64,000 nt of DNA from Corynebacterium sp. (GCF_030826625.1 NZ_JAPJNQ010000001.1:36187-100186); one strand, 5' to 3'. Shown: positions 10,840 to 63,724, counted from the first letter of the stretch. The notes: a model not told the origin generated them from the sequence alone. Made by a program: numbers and translations.

Positions 10840-10890
10840 AATCTTCAAGCAGGCTGCATCTCATAATGCACTTGATGGGGTGTAGCTTGG

Positions 10891-38209: not shown

Positions 38210-38668
38210 ATGGCGAATCAACAATCTCGTCTACATTCACAAGTTTTTGGATACAACGCTGCTCGCTGGGTGGTGGTCGCAGTGATAGTAGCGATCACCA
38301 TCTGGTTCCTGCTCGTGATGAGTTGGATGGCGTTTCCCATGGTCATCGTGACGGCAATCGTCGTGTTGTTTCACATCGACACTCAGTTAGACCAGAAGCA
38401 GCAGACGCTAAAAATCAAAGTCCTGTGGGTCCCTCTAAAAACCTGCAACTTTGCAGATATCAAGGAAGCTGCTATTCCACAGGATCCTTTGCCATTGGAA
38501 CGTAATACCTTCGGCGTGCACTTCGTCGGAGGTGCATTGTCCATGCACGCGGGCGCGGCAAACTTGGCGCTGGAGATGACAGATGGCAAAACCTACCGCG
38601 TGACGGTGGACCGACCACAGCAGTTTGTGCAGCGGTTGAATAACGCGGCCCTGAATAACGCAGCTTAA
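38210..38668 (+). CDS. Hypothetical membrane protein (152 aa)
   Basis: Two N-terminal TM helices then a soluble domain. GAAGG Shine-Dalgarno. Confidence 0.45.
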   Translation: MANQQSRLHSQVFGYNAARWVVVAVIVAITIWFLLVMSWMAFPMVIVTAIVVLFHIDTQLDQKQQTLKIKVLWVPLKTCNFADIKEAAIPQDPLPLERNTFGVHFVGGALSMHAGAANLALEMTDGKTYRVTVDRPQQFVQRLNNAALNNAA

Positions 38669-38669
38669 C

Positions 38670-39635: not shown

Positions 39636-39786
39636 GTCTGAAGCCTTTCCAGAAATGATTTTTCCAAAGTAAATGGGGCGAAAAGTTAGCCACCTGACTG
39701 TAGCGAGTGACAGAAGTGAAAACAGTATATCCCTGTTGCAGTAAGGCGGGGTGTAGGTGGTACCGCGATGGTCGGCCTTTCGGGTA

Positions 39787-39814
39787 TGAAAAAACCGGGC
39801 CCGAGGGCCCGGTT
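39787..39814 (-). terminator. Intrinsic terminator downstream of fas
   Basis: On the minus strand, ccaaccgggccc-tc-gggcccggtt followed by TTTTTT: a 10-bp GC-rich stem with a U-run. Confidence 0.55.
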
Positions 39815-39916
39815 GGAGCATGCCAGAGCACACCGCCCAGCTTCTGCACGCAGCCAAGCTAGTCTAGGCAGCTGGTGCACGCAGACTAGACAACCACTGC
39901 GTGCAATCTAGTCAGA

Positions 39917-45900: not shown

Positions 45901-48900
45901 TAACGGGGTAGTCCGTGCCAGCAGGCTCACCGTGTTCTTCGCCGATGCGGCCAGAGCCCAGTGCGGTATAAATCGCTGGCCACGCAGGGCCCACCAGCAC
46001 ATCCGGGGTGCCCGGGGCGGTGGTGAGTTTGTCGCCCAAACCAGCGCCAGTAACTGCGGTGTGCGCCTGCAGCAGGGTGGTAGGCAGAGTAAAGGAATCT
46101 TCGGCATAACCGAACGGGTACTGCTCGCCGACCGAGCCTTCCACGATGGTCGGCAAAGCAGTGATCTCATCGCCGGATTCGGAGATCGAACCCACCCCGG
46201 CCAAGCCCGCCAACAGGTCAAAGACGGCACCTGGCAGGCGATCGTGGTCGACGACTGGGCTAGCACCAGTGGCGACGGCGTCGGAAAGATCGACGGGGAT
46301 GGACACCGACTTCACATAAAACGGGCGCTGCTCTTCTGGCAGATCATCCCAGTAGGAGTCGGTGTTGATGCGAATGGAATACTGCGGGGCGGCCTCGGTG
46401 CCGTCGTTGACGATGTCGAAGGCCTCGGCCGGCAGCTCCACGGCAGGGTTAGCGATGGTGTGCCCATGCCACTCCAGGCTTGGGGCCTGGCGCAAGAATT
46501 CCTCTGCGGTTTTCGCATTACCCAGGCGTGAGTACTGCTCGGTTGGCTCGACGCCAGCCTGCTGCAAGGCCTCGGTGGTGCCGGTTTCGAACCGGGCCAG
46601 CAACTCGGCGACGGGCTCGTCGACCTTGGTAATGCCCGCAACCGAGACCGGCCCCGGGATGATGCGCACGGCGTCGGCGTCGTAACGATCCTCCTGCGCC
46701 TGCCACAGGGTGTCCTTGGAGAACCACTTCTTCAGATCCCCATCGATGGCGGTGGTCCACGGCATTGGCTTGTTGTGCTTGTGGTTCAGCGAGACAAACC
46801 AGGCAGCATCGCGGGCCGCGACGGTGGTGGTGGCAGCCTGCGGGAAAGCGTCGAGCAGCGTGCGCAGGTTGGCTGGGGCGTCGGCGACGGAATCCAGGTC
46901 CGGGAAGAGGGTGTCGATCTCGCCATGATCGGACGGGTGCAGACGAGCCTCGATGCGGTGCAACAGATCAAACCAGCGATCCTGCCAGGTTGGGTCCATG
47001 AACGGGAAGGCCAGGTTAACGAAGCGCTCCAGCCACTGCTGGTAGGTCATGGTCTCGACGTCACCGAAATACGGCTTGGAGGTCTTGGCCAGCGCGGTGA
47101 TGATCTCGTCGCGGTGATCCTGATACTCAGCCGGATCCAGCGAGGTGATCAGCCGGGCGGCAGCGGCGAAGGAGTTATCGATTTCGTGGAGATCCGCCAG
47201 CAAGTGCGACTGCCCGGAAGCCACACCACCGTTGGCGCTACCGCGGCCGACCCAACCGCCATTGGTATCCGGGCTGATACCCGGGGTGTCAACGAGCAGC
47301 TGTTTGACCTGCGGGGAAGTGGTGGCTTCTTTGGTGGCCATGGCGACCGTGCCGACGAATACGCCATCGACCGGCATGCGCGGCAGAGAATACTTCTGCG
47401 ACCACGTACCAGTCAGGTATTCCGCAGCACGTTCCGCCGAGTAAATGCCACCGCCGACGGTGATGGTGACGTTATCGCGCTCGCGGGCAGCGGCGTAGGT
47501 GTCGATGAGCATCTCATCCAGATCCAGCCAAGAGTGGTGGCCGCCGGCGTGGCCGTCCTCGATCTGCAGAATCAACTGGTGCTCCGGGTTGGCGTCTGCA
47601 ATGGCCAGGATGTCGCGGATCTGCTTGGTGGTGCCCGGTTTGAAGGAAATATATGGGAAACCGTCGGCGCGCAGCTGCGCGAGCAGTTCGGTGGCTTCGT
47701 CGGCTTCCGGTACACCAGCCGAAATGGTGACACCAGTAATCGGTGCGCCGTTCGCGCGGGCCTTCGGGACGATGCGCGTCTGGCCAAACTGCAAGTTCCA
47801 CATGAAGCGATCGAAGAACATGGTGTTAAAGGCGACGGTGCGTCCAGGCTGCAGCTGGCGGATCAGCGAATTCTTCAGCTCAGTGAACAGCTCTTCGGAA
47901 TACATTCCGCCGCCGGCCATCTCCGTCCAGAAACCGGCATTGGCAGCAGCGGCCACGATGGTTGGGTCGACGGTGGTTGGCGTCATGCCGCCGAGCATGA
48001 TCGGGGACAAACCGGTCAGTGCAGAGAACTTCGTTTGCGTGTACGTCTTGCCATCCGGCAATGTGACCAGGCGCGGGGCGAACTCGGACCAGTCGCGCGC
48101 AGTAGGCAATTGCGCGCCGGGGGTAGCGAGGTTATCGCGTTGCGACGGCGTCCAGGCCGGGACCACACTCAGGCCGGTGCCCGCAACCAGCGGGGTGGTG
48201 AGTTTGGCCAGGCCGTCGTCAAGAACCAATGCGTGGCTGATGTGTTGGTCGACCATCTGGGCGGTCTGCGCGGTCCAGTCGAATGGGTGGACCAGGATCT
48301 CGCGGACGACGGTGGCGATATCGGTGTCGCCGAGGTCCAGTTGGCAGGCCTTAGCCCACTCGATGGTGAGGTCTGCGGCTTCGGTGAGGCTGTCGTGGTG
48401 GAAAGGCAGCGCGACCGGTAGGTAGGTGAAGTTCGGAGTAAGTTCTGAGCCGCCGAATTCGCGGGCCTCCAGGGCGTCGTTGTAGGCGCTGGCGCGTTCT
48501 GTGACGTTGTTTTCGACCGCTGCGAGCTCGTCCGGGGTGCCCGAGACAACGAAAGCGCGGGTGCCGTTGACCACCGAGATGGCGGCCGAGCCGGTGTTGC
48601 TGAGGCACGTGTCGACGAATTCGCGCGGCAGGTCGCGGATGAGCAGCATGTGCGAGCGGGAATCGGTGGAGCCGTGGGCGACGCTTGCTGCTGTGCCCAT
48701 CAGGATGGCCAGGGCAAGAGCGTGGACTGGGTGTTTGATGGCGGCGATGCCGAGGCTGCCCTGGGAATGCCCGAAGGCAGGGGAGTCGGCGTCGAGAGTG
48801 AGGCCTAGGTCGCGCAGTTGATCAATGGCGGCCAGCTGGCTGAGTACGATGCCCGGGATGCTGACGGCTGGGAAAACGTCATTGGCGGTGTTCGCGGCCG

Positions 48901-49159
48901 TTTTGGAGGTGCTGGCGCCGGTGTCTTGGGAACCTGCGTGCACGAGCGCTTCCAGGCGCTCCATGGCTCCAGGGACAGTGGAAGCAATGGTGCGGGCGTA
49001 AGGGCTGACCAGGCTGCGGGCCTGGGTCAGGTAATTGTCCAGGCGGCCGACGGCGTGGTGGCTGGCAGCGGCGTTATGCAGCTGCTTTTCCCATTCCGAG
49101 GCTTGACCAGCAAAAATGATGGCGGGGGCGCGCATGGAATCAAGCGGTGTCAAAGACAT
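39917..49159 (-). CDS. fas: Type I fatty acid synthase (multifunctional FAS-I)
   Basis: A single 3080-aa ORF carrying acyltransferase, enoyl reductase, dehydratase, malonyl/palmitoyl transferase, ACP, ketoreductase and ketosynthase regions in the corynebacterial/mycobacterial FAS-I order. Confidence 0.95.
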   Translation of the reverse strand: MSLTPLDSMRAPAIIFAGQASEWEKQLHNAAASHHAVGRLDNYLTQARSLVSPYARTIASTVPGAMERLEALVHAGSQDTGASTSKTAANTANDVFPAVSIPGIVLSQLAAIDQLRDLGLTLDADSPAFGHSQGSLGIAAIKHPVHALALAILMGTAASVAHGSTDSRSHMLLIRDLPREFVDTCLSNTGSAAISVVNGTRAFVVSGTPDELAAVENNVTERASAYNDALEAREFGGSELTPNFTYLPVALPFHHDSLTEAADLTIEWAKACQLDLGDTDIATVVREILVHPFDWTAQTAQMVDQHISHALVLDDGLAKLTTPLVAGTGLSVVPAWTPSQRDNLATPGAQLPTARDWSEFAPRLVTLPDGKTYTQTKFSALTGLSPIMLGGMTPTTVDPTIVAAAANAGFWTEMAGGGMYSEELFTELKNSLIRQLQPGRTVAFNTMFFDRFMWNLQFGQTRIVPKARANGAPITGVTISAGVPEADEATELLAQLRADGFPYISFKPGTTKQIRDILAIADANPEHQLILQIEDGHAGGHHSWLDLDEMLIDTYAAARERDNVTITVGGGIYSAERAAEYLTGTWSQKYSLPRMPVDGVFVGTVAMATKEATTSPQVKQLLVDTPGISPDTNGGWVGRGSANGGVASGQSHLLADLHEIDNSFAAAARLITSLDPAEYQDHRDEIITALAKTSKPYFGDVETMTYQQWLERFVNLAFPFMDPTWQDRWFDLLHRIEARLHPSDHGEIDTLFPDLDSVADAPANLRTLLDAFPQAATTTVAARDAAWFVSLNHKHNKPMPWTTAIDGDLKKWFSKDTLWQAQEDRYDADAVRIIPGPVSVAGITKVDEPVAELLARFETGTTEALQQAGVEPTEQYSRLGNAKTAEEFLRQAPSLEWHGHTIANPAVELPAEAFDIVNDGTEAAPQYSIRINTDSYWDDLPEEQRPFYVKSVSIPVDLSDAVATGASPVVDHDRLPGAVFDLLAGLAGVGSISESGDEITALPTIVEGSVGEQYPFGYAEDSFTLPTTLLQAHTAVTGAGLGDKLTTAPGTPDVLVGPAWPAIYTALGSGRIGEEHGEPAGTDYPVIEGLLNAVHLNHVIDLRVPLHELARGSKGESNARRIDVKSWCSAIDESNAGRIVTVELELRDHESGELVATQMQRFAIRGRATGASVPAPAPEWGGAALAREVESTPRSFVNRATVTAPQDMTPFALVSGDYNPIHTSTNAARLVNLDDALVHGMWLSATAQHLANTHGTVTSWTYSMFGMVQLGDKVEITAERVGRAGIHTALEVTCRIDGEVVSVGQALLAQPATAYVYPGQGVQAEGMGRGDRNASPAAREAWRRADHHTRTQHGFSIRQIIDDNPTELKVRGTTFRHPQGVLHLTQFTQVALAVVAYGQTERLRENNALATGAMYAGHSLGEYTALASLANIFDLEAVIDIVYSRGSAMGTLVERDEHGNSNYGMGALRPNMIGVSADEVQDYVAQVAQETGEFLEIVNYNISGQQYSIAGTKVGLAELAKRATAIAPRAFVTVPGIDVPFHSRVLRDGVPAFAEKLDELLPETLDLDALVGRYVPNLVARPFALTQDFVDATAALAPSGRLDGIDAATMEPQKLARLLLIELLSWQFASPVRWIETQELLFGRVEQIIEVGLASSPTLTNLAQRSLAVAGVSLPVYNVERDQDVVMLADVTEAPTEEPADDEAAGADGADGAGASNSAASSSAAADQASQSPEVGAEAARPTENPAPLAEAGPDSAGPASAAAPAAAAGGDTGAGAPAGELSFTAAEAIMTLFAFSNKIRLDQINDSDTVEELTNGVSSRRNQLLMDMSAELGVPAIDGAAEADVATLRGRVATAAPGYSPFGSVLSEAVSARLRQLTGAAGAKPAVVGERVTGTWSLPQSWIAHIEAEILLGSREEDSVRGGSLSTIPTTASSKAEVNELVDAAVQQVAARHGVTVSQSSGGAGAAGGSVVDSAALNEFAEQVTGENGVLATAARTVLAQLGLSEPAPETPESDNTLFETVEAELGTGWVKTVTPVFDSRKAVLFDDRWASAREDLARYALGQADIDIERFRGTGTTVAKQARWWAANGGQGELETVAKLAESELEGTYAEDIALVTGAAPGSIATALIARLLEGGATVIMTASRVSQARKEFARKLYAEHAIPGAALWLVPANLSSYRDVDAVIDWIGTEQVESVGNEVKLLKPALIPTLAFPFAAPPVTGSLADAGPQAENQTRLLLWSVERTIAGLAGLAQAGVDKRCHVVLPGSPNRGVFGGDGAYGEVKAALDAIMNKWKVEAGWSDGVTLAQVLIGWVAGTHLMAGNDGLVPAVEAAGIRVWNPDEISHELMSLASADSRTQAASAPLHLDLTGGLGDTLNMAELTAQAAANAEQAAAAAAEAAANAPAAPATITALPNIEVPAQPERVETGEITTDLDDMIVIAGVGEVSSWGSGRTRFEAEYGIQRDGSVELTAAGVLELAWMTGLVNWAEDPTPGWYDADGTAIAEEEIYARFRDEVVARAGVRTLSDKYHLQDQGSIDLATVFLDRDISFTVPSEAQARDIEAADPAFTRVAEADGEWQVTRLQGATAKVPRKATLTRTVAGQMPDNFDPTRWGIPEHMVDALDRMAVWNLVTAVDAFISAGFSPAELLQSIHPGNIASTQGTGIGGMESLHKVFVARFLDEERPSDILQEALPNVIAAHTMQSLVGGYGSMIHPIGACATSAVSIEEGCDKIKLGKADVVVAGGIDDVQVESLAGFGDMNATAETKKMTDQGIDERFISRANDRRRGGFLEAEGGGTVLLVRGSLARELGLPVYAVVAHAASYADGAHTSIPAPGLGALGAGRGRENSRLAKSLRGLGLHPNDVTVLSKHDTSTNANDPNESELHSMLWPAVGRDADAPLFVISQKSLTGHSKAGAALFQTGGLIDVFRTGRVPHNAALDCVDPLIEPKAKNLVWLREGVALADAGRPVKAAVLTSLGFGHVGAVVVYGHPGVFEAAVAAQFGEDAAGAWREQANARLAAGAAHREAGMIGRRALFSVIEGRRLPEQSSKEAEIALLLDDDARLGVDGTYPLPGAAG

Positions 49160-49334: not shown

Positions 49335-50174
49335 TTACATGCCCGGAGGTGCAGCAGGCACGATTAGTGGAACCGTAGTGCCACGTGCTTCAGACATGAC
49401 TGGGTCAGGGTTGACGTGGGCATCCAGGTTGAAGACTTCGCTGAGTAATTCAGGAGTGATGACCTGAGCAGGGCTGCCACTGGCGTGTATTGCGCCATCT
49501 TTCATCACTACGAGATGATCGGAATAACGGATCGCAAGGTTGAGATCATGAAGCACCATAACGATGGTTCGACCCAAATCATGCTTCAGGCGCGTGACCA
49601 AATTCAGAACGTCGATGGAATGCGAAAGATCCAGGTAGGTAGTGGGTTCGTCTAAAAACAACACATCGGTTTGTTGTGCAAGCACCATGCTGATCCACAC
49701 TCGTTGGCGTTGGCCTCCAGATAATGCCTCTAGCGAGCGTTCAGCTAGATGTGCAGTGTTCGTGAGTTCGAGTGCGCGCAGCACCTCTTGTTCATCGGCA
49801 GCGGACCACTGGTTGATCCACGACTGGTGCGGGTGGCGTCCGCGTGCGACCAGATCCGAGACTAATAATCCCTCCGGAGCACTGGGGGTCTGAGGCAAGA
49901 CACCTACAGTTTTTGCCAGGTTTTTACGCTTCATTGTGGTCGCGTCTTTACCGTCGACGGTCACCGTGCCTTGGCGAAGGGGAATGAGTCGGGAAACTGC
50001 GCGCAAGAGGGTAGATTTTCCACAACCGTTGGGGCCGATGATGGTGGTGATTTCTCCACTTGGGAAATCCACTGAAAGATCATCGATGATGATGTTATCG
50101 CCATAACCGACACAGATATTTTGCGCATTGACGCTGACACCACGGTTAGGGGGCGTAGAAATTGGATTGTTCAT
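49335..50174 (-). CDS. Ferric-siderophore ABC transporter ATP-binding protein (FecE/FepC-like)
   Basis: Walker A GPNGCGKST, the LSGGQRQR signature, and Walker B LFLDEPT. Confidence 0.85.
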   Translation of the reverse strand: MNNPISTPPNRGVSVNAQNICVGYGDNIIIDDLSVDFPSGEITTIIGPNGCGKSTLLRAVSRLIPLRQGTVTVDGKDATTMKRKNLAKTVGVLPQTPSAPEGLLVSDLVARGRHPHQSWINQWSAADEQEVLRALELTNTAHLAERSLEALSGGQRQRVWISMVLAQQTDVLFLDEPTTYLDLSHSIDVLNLVTRLKHDLGRTIVMVLHDLNLAIRYSDHLVVMKDGAIHASGSPAQVITPELLSEVFNLDAHVNPDPVMSEARGTTVPLIVPAAPPGM

Positions 50175-50230
50175 CGTTTTATTCTTAGTGTCTTATTCTT
50201 AGTTCTTGTTACGAGTTGTTTTTAATTTGA

Positions 50231-51340
50231 TCATGACGACCTAGACCGCTTGAGATTCGAGCTGATAAGCAGGTAGAGAAGGAATACACCACCAAAAGCG
50301 GAAGTCACGATGCCAACCGGGAGATCTACGGGGATATTCGTGCGAACCACGAGGTCAGCTCCTAACAGCAAGATTGCGCCCATGAATGCAGAAGCGACCA
50401 GTGGTGGTGTGGAGAGCTTGGTGATGCGTACCGCCAACTGCGGTGCGACAAACGCGACGAATCCGATCGGCCCAGCTGCAGCCACGGCGATTGATGCCAG
50501 AGTTACTGCGATAACCAAAAAAGTTAGCTGTGTGCGTGAGACGCGAAGGCCAAGTGCTGCGGCGAGATCTTGTCCAAGCACGGCAGCAGTGAGTGTGTAC
50601 GCCATCCAAGCTAATAGCGGGACGCAGATGAGGATGACGAGTGCTACCGGAACCGCGCGGTCCCAGTTAGTCGAATTGAGGGAACCTGCTAACCACTGTT
50701 GCGCAGTAGCGGCATCCCGTAACTCTGCTCGTGTCATCAAAAAGCCGATATAAGCATTCATGAGAGCCGTGATAATGATTCCGAATAGCACCAGCCGATA
50801 GGCATCGAAACTGCCCCGTGATGAAAGGATCCAGACGACAGCACCAGTAATGAGACCACCAGCCAGTGCTGCAAGGGGTAAGCCGAAGGTGGCAACCTTT
50901 CCGGCTACCGCAGCAAAAGCTCCAACACCTCCACCGAAGGTCAGCACGGTCACGGCGGCAGCAGAAGCGCCAGAGGTAATACCAAGTATGTCTGGACTAG
51001 CAAGTGGGTTGCCAGTCACTGATTGAGTTAGCGCACCAGCCAAACCCAGAGCAAAACCTACTGTGAGTGCTGTTAAAGCCCGTGGCATACGCCAATCGAA
51101 AACTGCGATACGTTCAATACGAGAACCGTCGCCAAGGAAAATTATGCGCAATACCTCAGGGACAGTTAAAGGATAATCGCCGATGGCGATCGAAGCAGCA
51201 AAGATGATCACTGCTGCGCAGATCATCGCGATGGTGCTAAAAAGAACCCATGGGCGCCAGACCAGAGAGATACGCCCCTTGCGTAGCGCTGGCCGCCCCG
51301 GCACCACTGGACGGGACAGTAGATGTGGTGAGTTCGTCAT
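50231..51340 (-). CDS. FecCD-family iron-siderophore ABC permease
   Basis: Polytopic protein with FecCD-like conserved Gly-rich TM segments. Its stop lies 56 nt upstream of the ATPase start. Confidence 0.8.
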   Translation of the reverse strand: MTNSPHLLSRPVVPGRPALRKGRISLVWRPWVLFSTIAMICAAVIIFAASIAIGDYPLTVPEVLRIIFLGDGSRIERIAVFDWRMPRALTALTVGFALGLAGALTQSVTGNPLASPDILGITSGASAAAVTVLTFGGGVGAFAAVAGKVATFGLPLAALAGGLITGAVVWILSSRGSFDAYRLVLFGIIITALMNAYIGFLMTRAELRDAATAQQWLAGSLNSTNWDRAVPVALVILICVPLLAWMAYTLTAAVLGQDLAAALGLRVSRTQLTFLVIAVTLASIAVAAAGPIGFVAFVAPQLAVRITKLSTPPLVASAFMGAILLLGADLVVRTNIPVDLPVGIVTSAFGGVFLLYLLISSNLKRSRSS

Positions 51341-52431
51341 AGAGCAACTACCTTCCGCCGATAAATGAGGTACATAAAGAATGGCGCACCGACGAATGCC
51401 AGTACGATTCCCACTTGTAATTCACCCGGGCGGGCAATGAGACGGCCCAAAATATCTGAAAGCAACAGCAAGCTAGCACCGGTCAGCGCTGAATATGGAA
51501 GAATCCACCGGTAATCAGGCCCGCACAGACTACGAGCAATATGCGGTACAACCAAACCAATGAAGCCGATCGGGCCCGCGGCCGCCGTGGCAGCTCCCGC
51601 AAGTAACGCGATGACCACCATGCCGGCCAACCGAGCCCGGTAAGTATTGACGCCAAGCGCACTAGCTGCGTCGTCGCCAAGATTCAGCAGATTCAACGTA
51701 GGCGCGGTTGCAAGTGCAACTATGAGTCCGACCGCGATAAACGGCGCGGTGCCCCAAAAAATTGAAAGATCCCTGCCAGATAATGCGCCAACGCTCCAGA
51801 AGCGCATCCGGTCCAGACTGTTGTCGTCGATGAGTGTGAGCGCAGTGGTCATGGAATGTAGCACCGCTGTTAGCGCAGCGCCGCCAAGGATTAACGTGAG
51901 TGGATTGATCTGTCCCCCACCCAGCGAGGCAAGACCGAAAACTAATGCAGTGGCAAGAACTGCACCACAAAAAGCCACGACGGATGTGCTCAAGGCAGAA
52001 GTGAGTCCAAACGCGAAAAAGCCTAAGACGACAGCGAATGCTGCGCCCGCTGAAACACCCAATAGTCCTGGGTCAGCCAGTGGGTTTCGGGTATGGCCTT
52101 GGATTAATGCACCTGCGACACCGAGTGCGGCACCGACAAATAAGCCGATGAGGGTGCGGGGCCAGCGGAGATCTGCGATAACGCGAGCGTCCGCGGAACC
52201 AGACTGAGGTTCGTCTAGCAATGAAGGTAGATTAATTAATGCTTGTAAGGCATCTGCGAACGCAATAGGCCGGGCACCAAAAAGTAGACTAGCGAGTAAA
52301 GCAGCGGCGAGGAGAAGAGCGAGTGCTAGCAACCCTGTAATGCGACGAGTGCGCAGGGACCGCGATGACCGCGTATATTCTTGCGAGTTCTTGCGCATGC
52401 TACGTCTCGAAGATAATCTTGTCGATTTCAT
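51337..52431 (-). CDS. FecCD-family iron-siderophore ABC permease
   Basis: Paralog of the 50231-51340 gene. A 4-nt ATGA-type overlap with it indicates translational coupling. Confidence 0.8.
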   Translation of the reverse strand: MKSTRLSSRRSMRKNSQEYTRSSRSLRTRRITGLLALALLLAAALLASLLFGARPIAFADALQALINLPSLLDEPQSGSADARVIADLRWPRTLIGLFVGAALGVAGALIQGHTRNPLADPGLLGVSAGAAFAVVLGFFAFGLTSALSTSVVAFCGAVLATALVFGLASLGGGQINPLTLILGGAALTAVLHSMTTALTLIDDNSLDRMRFWSVGALSGRDLSIFWGTAPFIAVGLIVALATAPTLNLLNLGDDAASALGVNTYRARLAGMVVIALLAGAATAAAGPIGFIGLVVPHIARSLCGPDYRWILPYSALTGASLLLLSDILGRLIARPGELQVGIVLAFVGAPFFMYLIYRRKVVAL

Positions 52432-52508
52432 AGTAAAGACTAACTTATTAGATCATTGAGCCCAGTGATAAACCTTAAGTCTTGGAACAAACACGCGAGT
52501 GGCACCAT

Positions 52509-55061
52509 TTAGACACCGTGCAGAGGATTTTCCAGTTCACCAGCGTAGATGAGCGACGAATCTTGGTCACCAAGAGTAACCATAGTATGAGGGTTGCGAA
52601 GCTGTAACCGGTTTAACGTTGAATGTCGGAATCTCGGTGCCAATAGAGCTTGCCAAAGCCTTGCCTGCCGAGAGTCTCCGGTAGTTAGTTCAGGATGATC
52701 TTTGGCATATACGGAGGCAACGTGCCGAAGCTGTTCCCAAAAGACGTCTTCCTCGAGAATTGCATGATCGTCAAGCAGTGCTGCGAGATGGCGGAGAACG
52801 CCGTCAATAACATCAGTATGTATAGAAAGCGCCTGCTGGGATAAATCTTCGGGTGAGTCAGAACCGCAGCGAGCGCGCAATCGTTCTAGTCCAGAAGGAA
52901 CCGGCGTTTCATTCGACACCACGGCTATTTCTTCGCCAAGGTCCTTATGATAAATGCCAACCGGTTTATTCTGATTGAGACGTAAAATGACGTTTTCCGT
53001 ATGAGGCATGAAAACAATTCCGTAACGCACCAGTGCATGAATGAGAGGGCGAACGTACAGAGTCAAAAGCTGGTTGATCCAGTCAACAGCCGATAAGCCG
53101 CTCTGATTAATCCAGGCACTTATAAGAGGTAATCCTTCGTCATCAGAGTGAAGTATGCCCGCTAGCGTAGATAAAGTGTCGCCGTCATCCAATGCGGGAG
53201 TGGTCTCGGGGCTGAACGGAGATTGTCTCCATAATGCAGCGGTCATTTTAGTGTGAGAACCGTCGTTGGTGACGCGATGGTAAACACTGCCTGTATATCC
53301 TACTGACGCAATCTCAGGGAGAAATCCAATGCCTGATTGGAAAAACTCTGGATCATCTCCGATTAAATTCAGCAGCCAGAGATTAACTCGTGGAGTTGAC
53401 TCCATGTAATGTGCAGAAAGCCCGCGAGTAAAACCCATGTTACGAACTGCGACGGCGGTTTTTACGTATGGTGCAGCTGGAGTAGAAGTGTTGAAGAAAG
53501 TGCGCAGAGATTGTTGTGGGCGGTAGGCTTCCCCTTCTCGACCGAGTGGAACAATTCGACCGGTAGCTAAATCAGCGGAGAATGTGGTGGTAAAACGTTG
53601 CTCCCACTGCCAAGGGTGAACAGGTAGCGGGATGTAGTCGTCCGGATTAAGGCCAGCTAGTCTACAGCGGTCTTTAAAATCCGGAACCAGAGTCAATATA
53701 GCCTCGTTAGAAGAATGAGAAGACCCTGATTCTTGCGCCCTCTCGTACTCGATTGTCGCGAGATGTGCATAGTTTTTGTCTACGGCACACCAAACAAGAT
53801 CAGTAGTACTACTGAGTTCTGGCGAGAAAGCACGGAGTTGAGTTTCGCCCATTCCTCCGCGACCGGAGTTAGCTAAGAAGCCAGGGTGACCAATTACCAT
53901 CGCAGATTCAATTGCCTGGAATAGCTCTGCAGGATCTCGAGTAGCGTCGGCCAGTTCAGTAGATGTTGGCCGTGGAATGGATAAAGTCCGCGCACGTGCG
54001 GCGAAAGTTGCTGAAATTTCTTCGAGGTACGTTTCGCGCGAGCTTTTCGCGATACCAAGTTGCTCAGCTGCATCAGCGATACCTGTAATGATATCGGGTG
54101 TCCAAGTGAGATCTGCTGGATCGTGGATGCTGAGCGGATCTACGCTGAGATGAAGCAATCTATGCTCGCGAGCCCGAAAAATTAGTTTCCGGGATCCCCA
54201 GCTGATTTGATAGGAACGCCATCCGCTGTGATTGCCATCGTTAGACTCAGTCTCATTAGCAGACTCTTTGATCTTTCGCGGGGATATAAGTCTTTCATGG
54301 GTGAATTCCCGCAATGCTTTGGCGAAAAGTTCGCGGTGTGCTGCTTCAGCGGTTTTGGCTAAGTGGCCGATACCGAGTGTTACGGGGCTGGATGAATCTG
54401 TGGGCTTAATTAACTCCCAGGGGGTAGGCGCAATAGGATAACTCAGAGGGGCATTCGGCGAGCCCAGAAAATCAGGGCGTGTGCAATATTGGATTAACGC
54501 GGTTTTCGGTTTTCCGGACATCGTTAAGGTTGTTGTGAGCCCTGGTTGGGTGAATCCTGTTCGGGCATTTTTTCGATGGATTCCCAAATTAGAGACATCA
54601 GGCTCGACGACGATTCGGTTCACTTCACCGTGGCTAAAAATCCAGCGGACTAGAGCAGAGAAGATGTTATCGGTCAGTCCATGGATGCTCTTGCCTATGG
54701 GAGGCGAAACTAGGATGTGCATCCCGATATCGCCTTCATGGAGAGTGAATTCAGAACATGTGTTAAGTACAACGTGCTTTGGGTCGTAGGTTTCCGAAAG
54801 AGCAATCGGATTTCCGTCGAGATATAGTAGCCAAGCCTGTTCAGCATTGCTTGTTTCGATGCGTCGGTATTCTGCCAAAATCTCTTGTTCACTGGCATCT
54901 AAAGCACCCCAAAAGTGCGAACGAGGATGAGTGACCCATGTATGTAGTGTTTTAGCATCCTTCGTTGGTTGCACTGGGCGAATATTGACTGTCCCTAACG
55001 AAGTATGCATTGCACCAGGAGTCAAGCTGATTGGGTGGCAGGGTTGTTGTGATTTACTCAT
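52509..55061 (-). CDS. Fused siderophore N-acyltransferase (IucB/DesC-like) :: NIS synthetase (IucA/IucC/DesD-like), BibC-type
   Basis: N-terminal LHTWVTHPRSHFWG...NRIVVEPDVSNLGIHRKNARTGF fits the Acetyltransf_8/IucB family. The C-terminal roughly 620 aa (AMVIGHPGFLANSGRGGMGETQ...) are IucA/IucC plus a FhuF-like domain. The ATG at 55061 overlaps the upstream stop (ATGA) and has a GGAGGAG Shine-Dalgarno. Low GC. Confidence 0.8.
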   Translation of the reverse strand: MSKSQQPCHPISLTPGAMHTSLGTVNIRPVQPTKDAKTLHTWVTHPRSHFWGALDASEQEILAEYRRIETSNAEQAWLLYLDGNPIALSETYDPKHVVLNTCSEFTLHEGDIGMHILVSPPIGKSIHGLTDNIFSALVRWIFSHGEVNRIVVEPDVSNLGIHRKNARTGFTQPGLTTTLTMSGKPKTALIQYCTRPDFLGSPNAPLSYPIAPTPWELIKPTDSSSPVTLGIGHLAKTAEAAHRELFAKALREFTHERLISPRKIKESANETESNDGNHSGWRSYQISWGSRKLIFRAREHRLLHLSVDPLSIHDPADLTWTPDIITGIADAAEQLGIAKSSRETYLEEISATFAARARTLSIPRPTSTELADATRDPAELFQAIESAMVIGHPGFLANSGRGGMGETQLRAFSPELSSTTDLVWCAVDKNYAHLATIEYERAQESGSSHSSNEAILTLVPDFKDRCRLAGLNPDDYIPLPVHPWQWEQRFTTTFSADLATGRIVPLGREGEAYRPQQSLRTFFNTSTPAAPYVKTAVAVRNMGFTRGLSAHYMESTPRVNLWLLNLIGDDPEFFQSGIGFLPEIASVGYTGSVYHRVTNDGSHTKMTAALWRQSPFSPETTPALDDGDTLSTLAGILHSDDEGLPLISAWINQSGLSAVDWINQLLTLYVRPLIHALVRYGIVFMPHTENVILRLNQNKPVGIYHKDLGEEIAVVSNETPVPSGLERLRARCGSDSPEDLSQQALSIHTDVIDGVLRHLAALLDDHAILEEDVFWEQLRHVASVYAKDHPELTTGDSRQARLWQALLAPRFRHSTLNRLQLRNPHTMVTLGDQDSSLIYAGELENPLHGV

Positions 55062-56476
55062 ACGTTTTCTCCTCCAAATTGTTGGAAAGTCCAGGAATCT
55101 TCCACTTCGTAGACTGTGCGGCCGCATATGTTGTTGAGAATGATTGAGTTCCGCCAAGCTCCCATTCCCAAGTCTGGGGCATTGAGGCTATGGGTATGTT
55201 CTTCGGCATTGAGCACGTATAAGTCACGTCGCTGGTTAACCGTAAAATCGAGATTTACGTCCAGACGTCCTTGTTTGTCTGTGTTGATTTCGCCTGCTTC
55301 CGCAGCGGTAATCAAATGCGAAGGTATGGCAGGGCGCCCGTAGCCTGTAGCGAGGATGACGGCATCAGTCGCATGTATGTCGGCATTACCGGTTTCGTTG
55401 TTGGTCAGCTTCAGTAGTATTTGGCTCTCCGCGGCCTGCTCGTTGATGTGTCGTTCGTATGAGCTTTTGGGATCACTTTCTGTGAACAACTCCACGGTGA
55501 CATCTGGGCGTAGCTCTCCGCGTAGCGGAGTGGTAATGGACAGTTGATATAACGTGTCATAAATATCGTTAACTAAATCGCCGGAGATGCCCTTGTACAG
55601 GTTTCGCTGCTGGCGATTAATTTGATCGCGTCGCGCTTCTGGAAGTCTGTGGAAGTGGCGCACGTAGTCCGTACTAGTTAACTCCAAGGTGAGCGCAGTG
55701 TATTCCATTGGGAAGAAACGGGGTGATCTTGTTAACCAATTAAGACGGCGACCGGTTGCTGCGAAGGGCTCCATCAGGTGACGATAAATTTCTGCTGCAG
55801 ACTGGCCGGAGCCGACGATGGTCAATGACTGTATGTCTTCACTGTTCGATAAACGTTCTGCATGAAATAGGAAGTCAGAACTGTGAATAATGTTTTTGGT
55901 CTGATTTCTAGATTCGACAAGATTGGGTTGGAGCGAAGTCGGGACGTAAGGTTGAGTTCCCGTTCCGTTGACAAGATTCTTCGCAAGTACGGCCCTGGGG
56001 TTTGTGCCTCCAACTTGGACTCGCCAAAGTCCGTCTTTCGTTCGATGAACATCTGTTACGGGGCTAGACCATTGGAGTGTGCTAAGTTGGCCTGCAACCC
56101 AGGCGCAATAATTAGAGTATTCCGTACGATATGGGTAAAAAGATTCGCGAATGTAAAACTGATAAATTCGCCCCTGTCTTTTTAAGTAGTTTAGGAAGCT
56201 CCAAGGGCTGGTGGGATCGGCCAGACTGACGAGGTCCGCCATGAAGGGAACCTGGATCGTAGAGTTTGGAAACATTACGCCAGGGTGCCAACAAAAACCT
56301 TGATTTTCGTCGAAAAAGATGGCTTTGAGCTCATTCGATTGCACCAAGGGGTGTGCGAGTGCCGCCATTCCCAGATTGAAGGGCCCGATGCCGATCCCGA
56401 CAATGTCGAAAACTTCATCGGCAGCAACGCGCTGAGTTATATTAGTTGACGGTTGTTCGTGGATTTTCTTAGTCAT
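55058..56476 (-). CDS. FAD-dependent amine (lysine/diamine) N-monooxygenase (IucD/DesB/PvdA family)
   Basis: FAD-binding DIVGIGIGPFNLGMAA at the N-terminus and a K_oxygenase-like overall pattern. The ATG at 56476 has an AGGAGG Shine-Dalgarno and sits 2 nt after the decarboxylase stop. Confidence 0.85.
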   Translation of the reverse strand: MTKKIHEQPSTNITQRVAADEVFDIVGIGIGPFNLGMAALAHPLVQSNELKAIFFDENQGFCWHPGVMFPNSTIQVPFMADLVSLADPTSPWSFLNYLKRQGRIYQFYIRESFYPYRTEYSNYCAWVAGQLSTLQWSSPVTDVHRTKDGLWRVQVGGTNPRAVLAKNLVNGTGTQPYVPTSLQPNLVESRNQTKNIIHSSDFLFHAERLSNSEDIQSLTIVGSGQSAAEIYRHLMEPFAATGRRLNWLTRSPRFFPMEYTALTLELTSTDYVRHFHRLPEARRDQINRQQRNLYKGISGDLVNDIYDTLYQLSITTPLRGELRPDVTVELFTESDPKSSYERHINEQAAESQILLKLTNNETGNADIHATDAVILATGYGRPAIPSHLITAAEAGEINTDKQGRLDVNLDFTVNQRRDLYVLNAEEHTHSLNAPDLGMGAWRNSIILNNICGRTVYEVEDSWTFQQFGGENV

Positions 56477-58019
56477 CAATTTCCTCCTTGCTTTGTAGTT
56501 TGGCGCATTCATCTGTTCCAGCCGCACAAATTTTCTCTAATGCGTAGCGAATATCATCCTTAGTGAGACGTGGGTTCAGTATTGTGAATTTCAGGTAGGT
56601 TTTGCCGTTGCGCCTGGTGCTGGCTATGACGAGTTCATTCGCGTTGAACAACTGACGACGGATTGCATCGTTGATTTTGTTGATGACTTCGGTCTCCCGC
56701 ATACAAGTGTGTGAGCTTGGACTACCTGGCAGTGATGGTAGGAAACGGAAAAGGACTGTGCTCAATGTCGGGGTAGTGAGTAATTCTAGTTCCGGAAATT
56801 CATGAATTAGCTCCGCTGCATCGGTAGCAATTTCGCAACATCTATCGAATGCTTGGCCTAGCGCTTTGGGTCCGTCGGCTCGTAGGCTGAGCCACAATTT
56901 GAGTGCATCGAAGCGTCGGGTTGTTTGTAATGAGCGGTTTGCAAGATTCAATCGAGTGTCGGTCTCTGGATTAAGGTAATCCGAATGCCAAGTGACGTGT
57001 TCAAGTTCAGTGAGGTCGCGATAGATCAAAGCTGAACATGCGACTGGTTGGAAAAACGTTTTGTGAAAGTCAAGGCTAAATGAATTTGCTTGGTGAAGCC
57101 CAGAGAGTAGTTTTTGGTTTTTATCGCTAAGCAGAAGGGCACCACCGTAAGCACAATCTACGTGAACATAAATTCCGTGCTGCTGCGCTATCTGGGTTGC
57201 TTGTGCAATCGGGTCAATTGCTCCTAGATCTGTTGTGCCTGCAGTAAGGGCTAAGCAGGCTATGGTGTGTTTGCCATCGGTCTCGATTAAGGAGTTGATT
57301 GTACGGCGGAGAGAGGAAATTTTTAGTGCACCAGACGAATCACACTCGATTGTAATGACAGCTTCCTTTGGAAGGCCTAAAATATGGGCGGAGCGCGCAA
57401 TAGAATAATGTGCTTCTGCGGAGCAAAGAACTCGAAGGGAGTCTAGACTCGATCCCGAGTTCAAAGCTTTTTCACGGGAAGTGTAAAGGGCTTGTAAGTT
57501 TGACTGTGTGCCACCTGAGGTAAACGTCCCAGTTGCGTTATTCGCGTTCATTCCTGCGGAGGCAGCGAACCACTTTATGATTTGGTCTTCGATGATTGCT
57601 GCGCCGCGTCCCTGATCCCAGCTTTCGACTGCAGTATTCAATCCTGCAGAAATGGTCGCTCCGGCGAAACCTGCTGCTGTTATAGGGCAATTTAGATGCG
57701 CAAGATAACGTGGGGAATCGTACCGGATAGCGTGTGATACCCAAAGATCATTGAGTTCTTTTAGTGCTTCGTCTAGCGACCCCAGTGGTGTGTCAATTTC
57801 TACAGCATTGAAAGCTGCAGAAAGTTCGTCGACGCCAAGGTCCTTGTTGGGACAAAAAGTCTCGGGTGACGGGCTAAATGTCGGCGCGAGGGCTTGATTG
57901 AGCGTTTGTCCGGCGGATGACAAGGCGTGTTGATGACTATAGCCGTCTCCCAGGAATTGTAATCCTGGTTGTGCTTGTGGGACGAACTTCTGGGGGTATG
58001 AATCCATAGAGACCGACAC
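56469..58019 (-). CDS. PLP-dependent group II decarboxylase (DesA/lysine- or diaminobutyrate-decarboxylase-like)
   Basis: TSGGTQSNL and the PLP-lysine motif SLDFHKTFFQP. It is the first gene of the biosynthetic operon. The start is uncertain (GTG 58019 or ATG 58007). Confidence 0.8.
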   Translation of the reverse strand: MSVSMDSYPQKFVPQAQPGLQFLGDGYSHQHALSSAGQTLNQALAPTFSPSPETFCPNKDLGVDELSAAFNAVEIDTPLGSLDEALKELNDLWVSHAIRYDSPRYLAHLNCPITAAGFAGATISAGLNTAVESWDQGRGAAIIEDQIIKWFAASAGMNANNATGTFTSGGTQSNLQALYTSREKALNSGSSLDSLRVLCSAEAHYSIARSAHILGLPKEAVITIECDSSGALKISSLRRTINSLIETDGKHTIACLALTAGTTDLGAIDPIAQATQIAQQHGIYVHVDCAYGGALLLSDKNQKLLSGLHQANSFSLDFHKTFFQPVACSALIYRDLTELEHVTWHSDYLNPETDTRLNLANRSLQTTRRFDALKLWLSLRADGPKALGQAFDRCCEIATDAAELIHEFPELELLTTPTLSTVLFRFLPSLPGSPSSHTCMRETEVINKINDAIRRQLFNANELVIASTRRNGKTYLKFTILNPRLTKDDIRYALEKICAAGTDECAKLQSKEEIDD

Positions 58020-58248
58020 TAAGGTAAGGCTTCAGATGGTTCAATGAATGAAGTCTGTGAATTTCTTGTTATTTTGGTGGATGCGCTAGCATCTGGTGTC
58101 CTGTTTGTTAAATAGGAAAACCTTGCATAATGTGTCGGGCGCCCTATATCCTGAAAATGTTTATCAGACTTTCTGATGACCTTACGGAAAATCGTGCCAA
58201 CAATGTGTCGTATGGCGGTGCGCGGAATCAACGAAAGAAGGAATGAGC

Positions 58249-59322
58249 ATGTCATCTCTTATGCCCCATTCGGTTTTGCATACAAGCAACAGTAGCGGCT
58301 TAATTGCCCGTCTAGCAGCAGTTGTCTCTTCTATGACCTTAATGCTTGGTCTTGCAGCGTGTGCTGAAAATGGCGAAAGCAATGATGCTGCCGACAACAA
58401 CTCTGGTGAAACACGCACGATTGAACACGCACTTGGTGTTGCCGAGATTGAGGGCACACCCGAACGTGTGGTTACCCTTGGCCAGGGTTCCACCGAGACT
58501 ACTCTTGCACTCGGCGTGGTCCCGATCGCCGTTGAATCCTATGAATGGGGTGCAGATGAATCGGGCTACTTGCCATGGGTCAACGAAGAGCTCGAAGAAA
58601 TGGGCGTCAAAGATGACGAGAAGCCAGAGCTGATTACCGGTGCCGAAGAACTTAGCGCGGAAGAGATTGCGGCGTTGGAACCTGATCTGATCTTGGCCCC
58701 TTGGTCTGGCCTTACGCAAGAGCAGTACGACCAGATCAGTGAGATTGCGCCAACCGTCGCGTACGAAGAAGAGCCATGGGTTATTACTTGGGAAGAACAG
58801 ATCAATACTGTTGCTGAAGCACTGGGTAAAGGCGACCAAGCGCAGGACTTGATCGACGGTATCAACCAGCAGTTTGACGATGCCAAGGAAGAATCTTACG
58901 GCGAGCACACCTTCAGCTTCATCTATAACTCTGGAGTGGGAAACTACGGCATCTTCTTGCCAACGGAACAGCGTGTTCAATTCGTGTCCAAATTGGGCCT
59001 CCAGGTAGATCCAGCGGTTGAAGAGTTCCGGGATAGCGTCGTTGCGGGAACTGACTCCGCGACCGTCAGTGCAGAAAATCTGGATAAATTGAATGATTCA
59101 GATTTGATCTTCACCTTCTACTCTGACGAAGCCTCGCGGAAAGAACTGCACCAAGACCCTGCGTACTCCAGTATCGCTGCTATTGCACAGGGTGCTGAGG
59201 TTGCTCCGACCGACCAGTCCTTTGTTACGGGGTCATCGATGATTAACCCACTGACTGTTCCATGGGCAATCGAACGTTACAAAGAACAGATTGACGACGC
59301 GCTGGCAAAAGCCCAGCAATAG
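58249..59322 (+). CDS. Siderophore ABC transporter substrate-binding lipoprotein (FecB/FhuD-like)
   Basis: LMLGLAAC lipobox followed by a periplasmic-binding-protein type 8 fold pattern. It is divergent from the biosynthetic operon. The ATG at 58249 is spaced correctly from an AAGGA Shine-Dalgarno; the ATG at 58243 is too close. Confidence 0.8.
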   Translation: MSSLMPHSVLHTSNSSGLIARLAAVVSSMTLMLGLAACAENGESNDAADNNSGETRTIEHALGVAEIEGTPERVVTLGQGSTETTLALGVVPIAVESYEWGADESGYLPWVNEELEEMGVKDDEKPELITGAEELSAEEIAALEPDLILAPWSGLTQEQYDQISEIAPTVAYEEEPWVITWEEQINTVAEALGKGDQAQDLIDGINQQFDDAKEESYGEHTFSFIYNSGVGNYGIFLPTEQRVQFVSKLGLQVDPAVEEFRDSVVAGTDSATVSAENLDKLNDSDLIFTFYSDEASRKELHQDPAYSSIAAIAQGAEVAPTDQSFVTGSSMINPLTVPWAIERYKEQIDDALAKAQQ

Positions 59323-59372
59323 ATTGACGCTGTCTTCTGAATCGTGTGAGTAATTTCGATTTCAGAGACACT

Positions 59373-59418
59373 AAAAACCGCCGTGGGTGGCCCACGTACA
59401 TGGCTTTCCATGGCGGTT
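59373..59418 (-). terminator. Hairpin terminator downstream of fadD (minus strand), possibly bidirectional
   Basis: On the minus strand aaccgcc...ggcggtt encloses the inner stem cgtggg/cccacg and is followed by TTTTT. Confidence 0.5.
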
Positions 59419-59603
59419 AACTATTGGAAAAATCAGTGAAACCAGAGCCAGGCCGGCTTGCCGACGTCGGTGTCTGGTCCCTTCACCACACTGGCCAGAA
59501 AAAGCTCAAGGGCCTGGCCCCGATGGTTTAATCGGAGTCAGGCCCTTTCGGCAGTACGAAAAACAGAAGTCGCAGAACTAGCAAGTACTAGCCCGGCGAA
59601 GCG

Positions 59604-61508
59604 CTACTTCTTGTCAGCCTCGTCCGGCTGGGCGGCAGCAGCCTCGTCCGGCTGGGCGTCGGCAAGATCTTCTACCTCGACACCCTCCACGTCGGATTCT
59701 TGGTGGTCTGGCTGCTCATCGAGCGGCTTCGCCTTACCGGAAGTATCGGAATCATCGGAACCGTCTGTGTCGTCGTCGGCGGCGTCCTTCTCCTTCGGCA
59801 CCAGGCCCAACATATCCAGCAGGTCGGCCTGAACTTCGCGGCGGCGCAGCTTACCAATCTGGTCAGTAGCCAGCTCCTCGAAGTGGTAGAAGGTGCGCGG
59901 AACCTTGTATGCAGTCAGGCGCTCGCGGCAGTAGTCCTTTAGTCCATCCGGGTCCAGGGCGGCGCCTGCCCGCAGAACCACACAGGCTACGACGTCTTCG
60001 GAGCCGTCCTTACGCGGACGCCCCACGACGGCGCACTCTTCCACATCAGGGTGCTGGCCCAGGCAGTCTTCGACCTCGCCAGGGTAGACGTTGAAACCAC
60101 CGGTGATGATCATTTCCTTAATGCGGGAAACAATGCGCACGAAGCCATCTTCTTCCATCACAGCCATGTCGCCGGTGCGGAACCAACCATCATGGAAGGC
60201 GTTTTCCGTGGCTTCCTCATTGTGCAGATAGCCTTTGAAAACCTGCGGGCCGCGGCCGAGCAGCTCGCCTTCCTTGCCATCCGGCATGGTCTCTTCCAAA
60301 TTATCCGGGTTGGCGATGCGTACCTCAGTATCCGGGAAAGGGATACCGATATAGCCCGGACGCCGGTTTTCCGAGTGCGGGTTACAACACAGCACCGGCG
60401 AGGTCTCGGTCAAGCCGTAGCCTTCCACCAGCAGGCCGCCGGTGCGCTGTTCCCACTTCTCGACGGTGTCTTCCGGCAAGGGGGCGGCACCGGAAATGGA
60501 GTTGGTGATGCCCTTGAGATCAATGTTCTGCTTCTCGGCTGCCTCCATAACCTTGGAGTACAGCGTCGGCACGCCAGGCATCCAGGATGGCTTGCGGTTT
60601 TTGATGACGTCCATCAGCAACGGGATTTCCGGCTTTGGTACCAGCACCATCTCGCCACCCAGCGACACCGCCAGGCCGGCGATCAGCGTTAGACCGTAAA
60701 CATGGAACATTGGCAGAGCGCCCAGCACGCGTTCGTCCGGGTTGCGGCCCAAGGTAGGGAAGAACGCCAAGATCTGGGCGATATTCGCGGATATATTGCC
60801 CTGGGTGAGCTCTGCACCCTTCGGTGCGCCGGTAGTGCCCGAGGTGTAGAGGATCAGCGCGGTCGTTTCACTAGTGACACAATCAGGGGTACGGATTTCC
60901 CGCCCGTCGCCACCGAAAGCCTCACTGGCCAGGGACTCAAAAGAGATGGTGTTCGGTGCAAACTGGGACAGCTGCTTGCGTTTTTCGCGGATCGACGGCA
61001 GCGGCAGGTATCGCAGAGCCAGCTGCTTGGTGCGCGGCATCGCGTTGATCATGTTGACCGAAATGATGGTCTCCAGTGGAGTCTTGCTGCGAACCTGCTC
61101 CAACATTGGGGCGGCCTTGTCCCAGCAAATCGCGATGCGGGCGCCGTGATCCTGGAACAGACCTTCCAACTCGTGCGCGGTATAGAGCGGGTTGTGCTCG
61201 ACGACGGTCGCACCAATTTTCTGGATGGCATAAAAAGCAATAACGTGCTGCGGGCAGTTCGGAAGCAGCACTGCCACGCGGTCACCCGGACCTACGCCGA
61301 AGGCCTTCAGACCGGCGGCGACAGCGCGTACGTTCTTGTCGAGTTCGCTATAAGTCATCGTCTCGCCAAAGAAGTACGTTGCCTGCCGGTGGTGGTTATT
61401 GGTCAGGTTGCTGTCGTACAAGCTCAGCAGAGTCTTGTGCTCGTATTCCGGTTTTTCCGGAATATCGCCGTAGTGCTGTAGCCACGCCTTGGTATCCGAA
61501 GCGGTCAT
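59604..61508 (-). CDS. fadD: Long-chain fatty-acid--CoA ligase (FadD), acidic C-terminal tail
   Basis: AMP-binding ILYTSGTTGAPKGA and YGLTE motifs. AAGGAGG Shine-Dalgarno. The C-terminal Asp/Glu-rich tail is about 60 aa. Confidence 0.85.
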   Translation of the reverse strand: MTASDTKAWLQHYGDIPEKPEYEHKTLLSLYDSNLTNNHHRQATYFFGETMTYSELDKNVRAVAAGLKAFGVGPGDRVAVLLPNCPQHVIAFYAIQKIGATVVEHNPLYTAHELEGLFQDHGARIAICWDKAAPMLEQVRSKTPLETIISVNMINAMPRTKQLALRYLPLPSIREKRKQLSQFAPNTISFESLASEAFGGDGREIRTPDCVTSETTALILYTSGTTGAPKGAELTQGNISANIAQILAFFPTLGRNPDERVLGALPMFHVYGLTLIAGLAVSLGGEMVLVPKPEIPLLMDVIKNRKPSWMPGVPTLYSKVMEAAEKQNIDLKGITNSISGAAPLPEDTVEKWEQRTGGLLVEGYGLTETSPVLCCNPHSENRRPGYIGIPFPDTEVRIANPDNLEETMPDGKEGELLGRGPQVFKGYLHNEEATENAFHDGWFRTGDMAVMEEDGFVRIVSRIKEMIITGGFNVYPGEVEDCLGQHPDVEECAVVGRPRKDGSEDVVACVVLRAGAALDPDGLKDYCRERLTAYKVPRTFYHFEELATDQIGKLRRREVQADLLDMLGLVPKEKDAADDDTDGSDDSDTSGKAKPLDEQPDHQESDVEGVEVEDLADAQPDEAAAAQPDEADKK

Positions 61509-63501: not shown

Positions 63502-63724
63502 GGGAAACAATCCTCCTGTGGTTGTCCTGTGGCGTTGATGGCCACACCAGGTGCATGTGCTGCGAACCACGTGCATACGAACTAACAACCGGTAGCTAAC
63601 GACCGCTAGCATTCTGTGACGTAAGTCTGTGATCTAGGTTGCAGTTTTGGTTCTGTAACCACAGTAGGCGATAAAAGTCTGGCTGGCTAGTATTGGTTCG
63701 TTTCTACTTACGAAATAGCTATGT

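Follow-up and report, generated by a model that had tools for sequence, protein, structure and literature searches.

A single siderophore cluster, named dnoA-G, has been described in Corynebacterium propinquum (Stubbendieck et al., 10.1101/432948; Appl Environ Microbiol 2019). As reported there, its seven open reading frames (ORFs) comprise a decarboxylase that depends on pyridoxal phosphate (PLP), an L-lysine N6-monooxygenase, a synthetase with acyl-coenzyme A (CoA) N-acyltransferase, IucA/IucC and FhuF domains, and genes for transport; the genes are arranged as in the Pantoea dfo cluster, and a 19-bp DtxR iron box lies upstream of dnoB (10.1101/432948). The cluster is reported for 15 of 15 surveyed C. 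propinquum genomes, and similar synthetases occur in part of Corynebacterium pseudodiphtheriticum (PMC12188740). Here, we analyzed a 64,000-nt stretch of Corynebacterium sp. DNA (NZ_JAPJNQ010000001.1:36187-100186; the window, to which all coordinates refer as a whole), in which a preliminary description had pointed to three genes (52509-58019) as a hydroxamate siderophore operon. We are highly confident that the larger region 49335-59322 is the dnoA-G dehydroxynocardamine cluster of C. propinquum, a Des/Dfo-type nonribosomal peptide synthetase-independent siderophore (NIS) hydroxamate pathway with its own uptake system. This cluster is already named and published and is recognized by standard genome-mining tools; the present finding is correct but not new.

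Over residues 1-850, the fused synthetase encoded in the window shares 99% identity with its counterpart in C. propinquum DSM 44285 (genome scan); its identity to that of Corynebacterium sp. MSK297 is 91%. For six of the seven proteins, identity to those of DSM 44285 is 98-100%, and for the substrate-binding protein it is 86%. At the DNA level, the window shares 97.2% (megablast) or 95.7% (blastn) identity with the type strain over 15-17 kb and is 97% identical to several public sequencing-run assemblies, with the same gene order between the long-chain fatty-acid-CoA ligase (FadD) genes and the type I fatty acid synthase (FAS-I) gene. The window contains the published iron box TTATGCAAGGTTTTCCTAT once and without mismatch (0 matches expected by chance), at a distance of 93 nt upstream of the GTG codon at 58019, and the seven ORFs and their domain content match the published dno description. 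The 99% identity of the fused protein, the 96-97% DNA identity and the exact iron box together lead to the assignment of the locus as dnoA-G. On these identities the organism can be placed as C. propinquum or a very close lineage, and not as the C. glutamicum-like host assumed earlier. The features of the locus are as follows.

49335-50174, minus strand: ABC (ATP-binding cassette) transporter ATPase (putative dnoG); PF00005, E=1.5e-31
50231-51340, minus strand: FecCD-family ABC permease 2 (putative dnoF); PF01032, E=2.3e-79; 4-nt overlap with permease 1
51337-52431, minus strand: FecCD-family ABC permease 1 (putative dnoE); PF01032, E=1.4e-94; start at 52398 according to gene callers
52430-52448, plus strand: weak DtxR-like site ATAGTAAAGACTAACTTAT, located immediately upstream of the permease operon; 13/19 consensus positions
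52509-55061, minus strand: fused N-acyltransferase::type C NIS synthetase of DfoC/BibC type, 850 aa (putative dnoD); PF13523, PF04183 and PF06276
55058-56476, minus strand: flavin adenine dinucleotide (FAD)/NADPH-dependent amine N-monooxygenase of DesB/DfoA type (putative dnoC); PF13434, E=3.3e-102
56469-58019, minus strand: group II PLP decarboxylase of DesA/DfoJ type (putative dnoB); PF00282, E=4.9e-47
58112-58130, minus strand: predicted DtxR iron box TTATGCAAGGTTTTCCTAT, located between the binding-protein and decarboxylase genes in their divergent promoter region
58243-59322, plus strand: substrate-binding lipoprotein gene (putative dnoA), divergent from the biosynthetic genes; PF01497 (Peripla_BP_2), E=1.8e-23

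The three tightly coupled biosynthetic genes of the preliminary description, for a decarboxylase, an N-monooxygenase and an 850-aa fusion, were recovered as ORFs with strong Pfam matches. They do not form a unit of three: a divergent binding-protein gene and a permease-permease-ATPase operon bring the number to seven. The ATGA start/stop overlap between the monooxygenase and fused genes is present (4 nt, GTATGAGT at 55061-55058), whereas the supposed 2-nt gap between the decarboxylase and monooxygenase genes is in fact an 8-nt overlap (ATGACTAA), with the ATG at 56476, the TAA at 56471-56469 and an AAGGAGG ribosome-binding site in front. Both overlaps recur in independent gene calls on near-identical contigs. 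On those contigs the decarboxylase is called from the ATG at 58007 (512 aa) instead of the GTG at 58019, and the former is likely to be its start.

The base composition of the locus sets it apart from its surroundings. The biosynthetic genes have a GC content of 0.485-0.494 and a third-position GC content (GC3) of 0.44-0.52, compared with 0.59-0.64 and 0.73-0.77 for the flanking FAS-I and FadD genes and a mean GC of 0.568 for the whole window. They had been described as more AT-rich than their neighbors, which holds for their GC content; the low-GC block is nevertheless wider than these genes and extends from about 49.3 to 59.3 kb, covering all seven genes, of which the four transport genes have a GC content of 0.517-0.550 (GC3, 0.51-0.54). 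The biosynthetic genes (GC of about 0.49) are the AT-richest part of this block. An Rfam scan of the window returned one tRNA and nothing within the cluster. No tRNA, integrase or terminal repeats were noticed at the borders, where no systematic search for them was made. A sigma-70 promoter scan gave fewer sites than shuffled sequences (5 versus 10.1) and was not used.

The domain assignments of the three enzymes bear out the proposed des/bib-type domain logic with a DesC::DesD fusion, both through Pfam, where every family named for checking (PF13523, PF04183, PF06276, PF13434 and PF00282) was matched strongly, and through matches to the solved structures of DfoJ, DfoA and DfoC. The decarboxylase is closest to DfoJ of Erwinia amylovora (5o5c; E=8.9e-101, 341 bits), followed by an L-2,4-diaminobutyrate (DABA) decarboxylase (2qma; 275 bits), and its translation contains the HK motif ...SLDFHKTFFQ.... 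Its best NCBIfam model is L-2,4-diaminobutyrate decarboxylase, at 335 bits against a cutoff of 900. The monooxygenase (472 aa) belongs to the lysine/ornithine N-monooxygenase family (PF13434). Its best structural matches are a near tie between DfoA (5o8p; E=1.7e-106, 359.9 bits) and 6xbb (E=1.9e-106, 359.7 bits), with the putrescine N-hydroxylase 7us3 scoring lower (E=3.8e-96, 325.8 bits), and the motifs GIGIGPFN, GSGQSAAE and LATGYG can be read in its translation.

The N-terminal domain of the 850-aa protein, on whose membership of the IucB/Acetyltransf_8 family the fusion depends, matches Acetyltransf_8 (PF13523) at residues 32-172 (E=1.7e-34; 119 bits, cutoff of 27) and also aligns with NcdE. 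It is followed by IucA_IucC (PF04183) at residues 381-638 (E=8.8e-66) and FhuF (PF06276) at residues 660-826 (E=6.3e-27). Residues 22-847 align colinearly, in one stretch, with residues 16-783 of the fused DfoC (5o7o; E=4.7e-132), and DesD is the second-best structure for the C-terminal two thirds (E of about 1e-113). The structure matches rank DfoC, DesD, AlcC and NcdF in this order, far ahead of IucC, AsbB and IucA in turn, and because of this order the C-terminal part is placed, as a prediction, among the type C NIS synthetases. Across an alignment of 17 relatives, the synthetase motifs HPWQW, QQSLRTFFN and MPHTENVIL do not vary. The motifs in all three translations are those expected of active enzymes.

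Proteins that fuse acyltransferase and synthetase occur widely in Actinobacteria, Gammaproteobacteria and Bacteroidota. More than 1,100 database matches were obtained at E<=1e-10; all 120 listed contain the three domains, and most of the named fused proteins among those listed are from Actinobacteria. The trio of decarboxylase, monooxygenase and fused synthetase was found in the same order in Corynebacterium, Brachybacterium, Brevibacterium, Dietzia, Streptomyces, Micromonospora, Photorhabdus, Chromohalobacter, Glaciecola and Tenacibaculum. Corynebacterium also harbors a distinct and widespread trio of this kind, seen in two complete genomes of Corynebacterium sp. (L008 and L015, 7100-12470), which lies between ribosomal protein operons with no adjacent importer. 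Its synthetase, in a cluster of 117 member sequences, is 42-43% identical to that of the window. The widespread Corynebacterium fused synthetase P0019 (43% identity) was rejected as a dno synthetase, as it belongs to a different cluster in a different context.

The binding protein has a lipobox (LAAC) in its translated N-terminus and weak NCBIfam matches to Fe-siderophore binding proteins, and its gene occupies the same position in all related loci. This gene is mosaic, with 86% protein identity to the C. propinquum type strain and 97% to the more distant MSK297, and no part of the intergenic region 59313-59643 can be aligned to the type strain. Both observations touch the right border (58243-59643), where they suggest recombination.

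Agreement with the DtxR consensus TWAGGTWAGSCTWACCTWA is a separate matter from the exact match to the published box. A scan of the window with this consensus, allowing up to 3 mismatches, found no site, and the box at 58112-58130 agrees with it at 14/19 positions. With a looser threshold (at least 13/19), 24 sites were counted in the window, three of them in intergenic regions of the cluster including the published box; because so many sites reach this threshold, a match to the consensus alone is weak evidence. The site at 52430-52448 is such a weak DtxR-like match, for which a regulatory function is putative. Another weak site (58020-58038; 14/19) abuts the decarboxylase start. The best consensus match in the window (15/19, TAAGCCAAGCCTCACATAA, 25846-25864) lies elsewhere, about 35 bp upstream of the succinate dehydrogenase operon (sdhC-like, 25900-26730; sdhA, 26793-28802; sdhB, 28697-29551), which presumably fits the iron-dependent control of sdhCAB in C. 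glutamicum.

The preliminary description held that the product could not be told from sequence, and we agree; for C. propinquum it has been determined experimentally, by liquid chromatography-tandem mass spectrometry (LC-MS/MS) of strain HSID18034, as dehydroxynocardamine (m/z 585.358), the central node among analogues from which one or two more N-hydroxy groups are missing (10.1101/432948). Dehydroxynocardamine is reported to be a trimeric macrocycle built on cadaverine and belonging to the desferrioxamine E type, so that the macrocyclic dihydroxamate envisaged earlier gives way to a cadaverine-derived trimer with its analogues (10.1101/432948). In a second laboratory, C. propinquum was the only siderophore producer (chrome azurol S positive) among the nasal Corynebacterium isolates of the study concerned (PMC11296517). 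In the human nose, this product reportedly enables C. propinquum to deprive coagulase-negative staphylococci of iron (Stubbendieck et al., 2018/2019), and in vivo expression of the cluster has been reported from metatranscriptomes. As reported, the cluster thus matters for iron competition in this habitat.

A pathway can be proposed by carrying over the enzymology of the established DesABCD/DfoJAC pathway in combination with the family assignments. The PLP decarboxylase would convert L-lysine to cadaverine, one amino group of which would be N-hydroxylated by the FAD/NADPH-dependent monooxygenase. The N-terminal GCN5-related N-acetyltransferase (GNAT) domain of the 850-aa protein would then use succinyl-CoA to form N-hydroxy-N-succinylcadaverine, and the C-terminal type C NIS domain would link three such units with ATP and close the macrocycle. 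Incorporation of units lacking the N-hydroxyl group would yield dehydroxynocardamine and the further dehydroxy analogues. The ferric complex would be captured by the lipoprotein and taken in through the two FecCD permeases and the ATPase, while Fe-DtxR bound at the iron box would repress transcription from the divergent promoter region.

Several points weigh against this assignment and the pathway attached to it. The link between cluster and product rests on the dno cluster being the sole siderophore cluster found in producers, on its absence in non-producers and on its matching chemical class, and the preprint of the original study (10.1101/432948) reports no knockout or heterologous expression. 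The substrate of the decarboxylase is not settled by sequence, its top NCBIfam model being the diaminobutyrate decarboxylase mentioned above, far under the cutoff. The iron box is a predicted site with five mismatches to the DtxR consensus, the seven-gene cassette contains no exporter gene, and the letters dnoA-G were assigned to the individual genes here by inference.

The main physiological product could also be the fully hydroxylated desferrioxamine E (nocardamine), the dehydroxy forms being by-products of culture conditions or limiting N-hydroxylation. Desferrioxamine E has been detected in synthetic communities dominated by C. propinquum and connected with this cluster (10.64898/2026.01.08.698450), and the enzyme set is the same as that of dfoJAC, which makes desferrioxamine E. 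We nevertheless regard this as somewhat unlikely, given the central position of dehydroxynocardamine and the presence of still less hydroxylated analogues in the original study (10.1101/432948). Sharing its genes and its chemistry with the dehydroxynocardamine assignment, this reading is a variant of it and not a true alternative.

The locus also exists in a form restricted to uptake. In Corynebacterium sp. MNWGS58 (L139, 4345-8868) and one Logan sequencing-run assembly (L140), the four transport genes lie between FadD and FAS-I without the three biosynthetic genes. The flanks of both loci are about 93% identical to the window, in which positions 52457-58303 (5,847 bp) correspond to 300 bp in the uptake-only form, and the breakpoints are identical when the comparison is made with MSK297, in which the cluster is complete. 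The four transport proteins are intact and 94-99% identical, and L139 keeps an iron-box-like element, ATAGCATTGACTAACCTAC, which resembles the site at 52430-52448 and occupies the same place. Within the 300-bp replacement (L139, 5580-5665 in window orientation), a 9-bp inverted repeat, AGATCATAC ... GTATGATCT, flanks a GC-rich stretch of about 65 bp that has no counterpart in the window; a deletion scar is one possible reading of this segment, a small hairpin element another.

Since more distant relatives have retained the seven-gene order, we infer that the seven-gene unit is ancestral and that the uptake-only form arose from it by deletion. The propinquum/pseudodiphtheriticum group may thus be polymorphic at this locus, with seven-gene producers alongside uptake-only strains that have lost exactly the three biosynthetic genes and kept the uptake genes and the iron-box-like element; we put this forward tentatively, at somewhat less than even chances. 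A non-exhaustive search of the C. propinquum siderophore literature, as far as its text was available, found no description of the uptake-only allele, which may be a new by-product of this analysis. If the polymorphism is real, uptake-only strains would be natural cheaters pirating dehydroxynocardamine from C. propinquum in the nose, and the allele could serve the study of siderophore cheating among nasal corynebacteria.

The low-GC cassette of seven genes was probably acquired horizontally as a unit. The same cassette occurs at 58-83% amino acid identity in other genomic contexts in two uncultured relatives (L090 and L091), in L090 beside ribosomal protein genes, and the neighborhoods of the FadD homologues of Corynebacterium diphtheriae and C. 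glutamicum contain no such cluster. It is these varied contexts and cluster-free neighborhoods, together with the low GC and GC3 values, that argue for acquisition as a unit. The FadD homologues of the two species are not beside FAS-I, and the FadD/FAS-I junction was therefore rejected as an ancestral empty site. Metagenomes were also searched for an empty site, the N-terminus of FAS-I serving as the query; one short contig at 100% identity was returned and, apart from this, distant relatives only (about 45%).

A separate insertion of the three biosynthetic genes into a preexisting uptake locus would be in line with their lower GC content (0.49, versus 0.52-0.55 for the transport genes) and with the close relative whose corresponding locus holds the transport genes but not these three. 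We consider such an origin unlikely, as the seven-gene order is kept in the more distant relatives in unrelated contexts (L090 and L091) and the transport genes are themselves far below the flanks in GC3 (0.51-0.54 versus 0.73-0.77).

Further observations were made on the flanks and elsewhere in the window. Compared with window positions from about 38645 to 49044, strain MSK297 (L016) lacks the gene for the 3,080-aa FAS-I that adjoins the cluster in the window, although its own seven-gene cluster is complete (92% DNA identity); close relatives thus vary in the FAS-I copy at this locus. Within the FAS-I gene (39917-49159, minus strand), positions 42515-44068 are 86-88% identical to three C. propinquum-type assemblies, compared with 97% elsewhere, with about 60-225 bp unaligned, depending on the assembly; judged by its sequence, this patch appears to be divergent or recombined. 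On the other side of the cluster, tandem FadD paralogues (59604-61508 and 61726-63612) are followed by a third that begins at about 63830. The paralogues in the window are 70-75% identical to each other in DNA, and three in a row occur on related contigs. A second patch of low GC content (0.50-0.52; 10001-14000) directly follows a tRNA gene (10275-10347, plus strand) and contains a gene for a 580-aa protein with Schlafen/AlbA_2 and HATPase_c_4 domains (10891-12633, minus strand); it may be another small island.

Among known systems, the BibC protein of bibABC (bisucaberin; Aliivibrio salmonicida) is likewise a fusion of acyltransferase and synthetase, and such fusions yield dimers in Aliivibrio. 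A dimeric macrocyclic dihydroxamate of the bisucaberin/putrebactin type, or a diaminopropane-based product, in place of the cadaverine trimer would agree with this, with a ring size that is unreadable from sequence and with the diaminobutyrate decarboxylases found as top NCBIfam model and second structure (2qma), but it is very improbable considering that the NCBIfam match is far under its cutoff (335 versus 900 bits), that the top structure is the desferrioxamine decarboxylase DfoJ (341 versus 275 bits), that the monooxygenase is nearer to DfoA (359.9 bits) and 6xbb (359.7 bits) than to the putrescine hydroxylase (325.8 bits), and that C27 trimers were found by LC-MS/MS in C. propinquum (10.1101/432948) and desferrioxamine E in communities that this species dominates (10.64898/2026.01.08.698450). 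As to bibABC itself, fused trios of the kind described here were found in loci of marine Gammaproteobacteria and Bacteroidota.

The desABCD system of Streptomyces provides the same four catalytic activities, with DesC and DesD as separate proteins where the window encodes a single polypeptide. The dfoJAC cluster of E. amylovora and Pantoea agglomerans (desferrioxamine E) encodes the three biosynthetic enzymes in the order found here, with DfoC as the same kind of fusion. Its proteins are the top structures for the decarboxylase and for the fused protein; for the monooxygenase, they tie with 6xbb. The relationship is nonetheless distant: the alignment spans 826 residues here and 768 in DfoC (850-aa and 787-aa proteins, respectively), the extra length being in the interdomain linker. 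The locus in the window further differs from dfoJAC in its Gram-positive host, in a cassette-encoded lipoprotein/ABC importer in place of a TonB-dependent receptor and in the reported C. propinquum product, which lacks one or more N-hydroxyl groups. Compared with the dno cluster of C. propinquum, it has the same seven ORFs, domain content and iron box, and is a strain-level variant that differs from the type strain in the binding-protein gene (86% protein identity) and in nothing else of substance.

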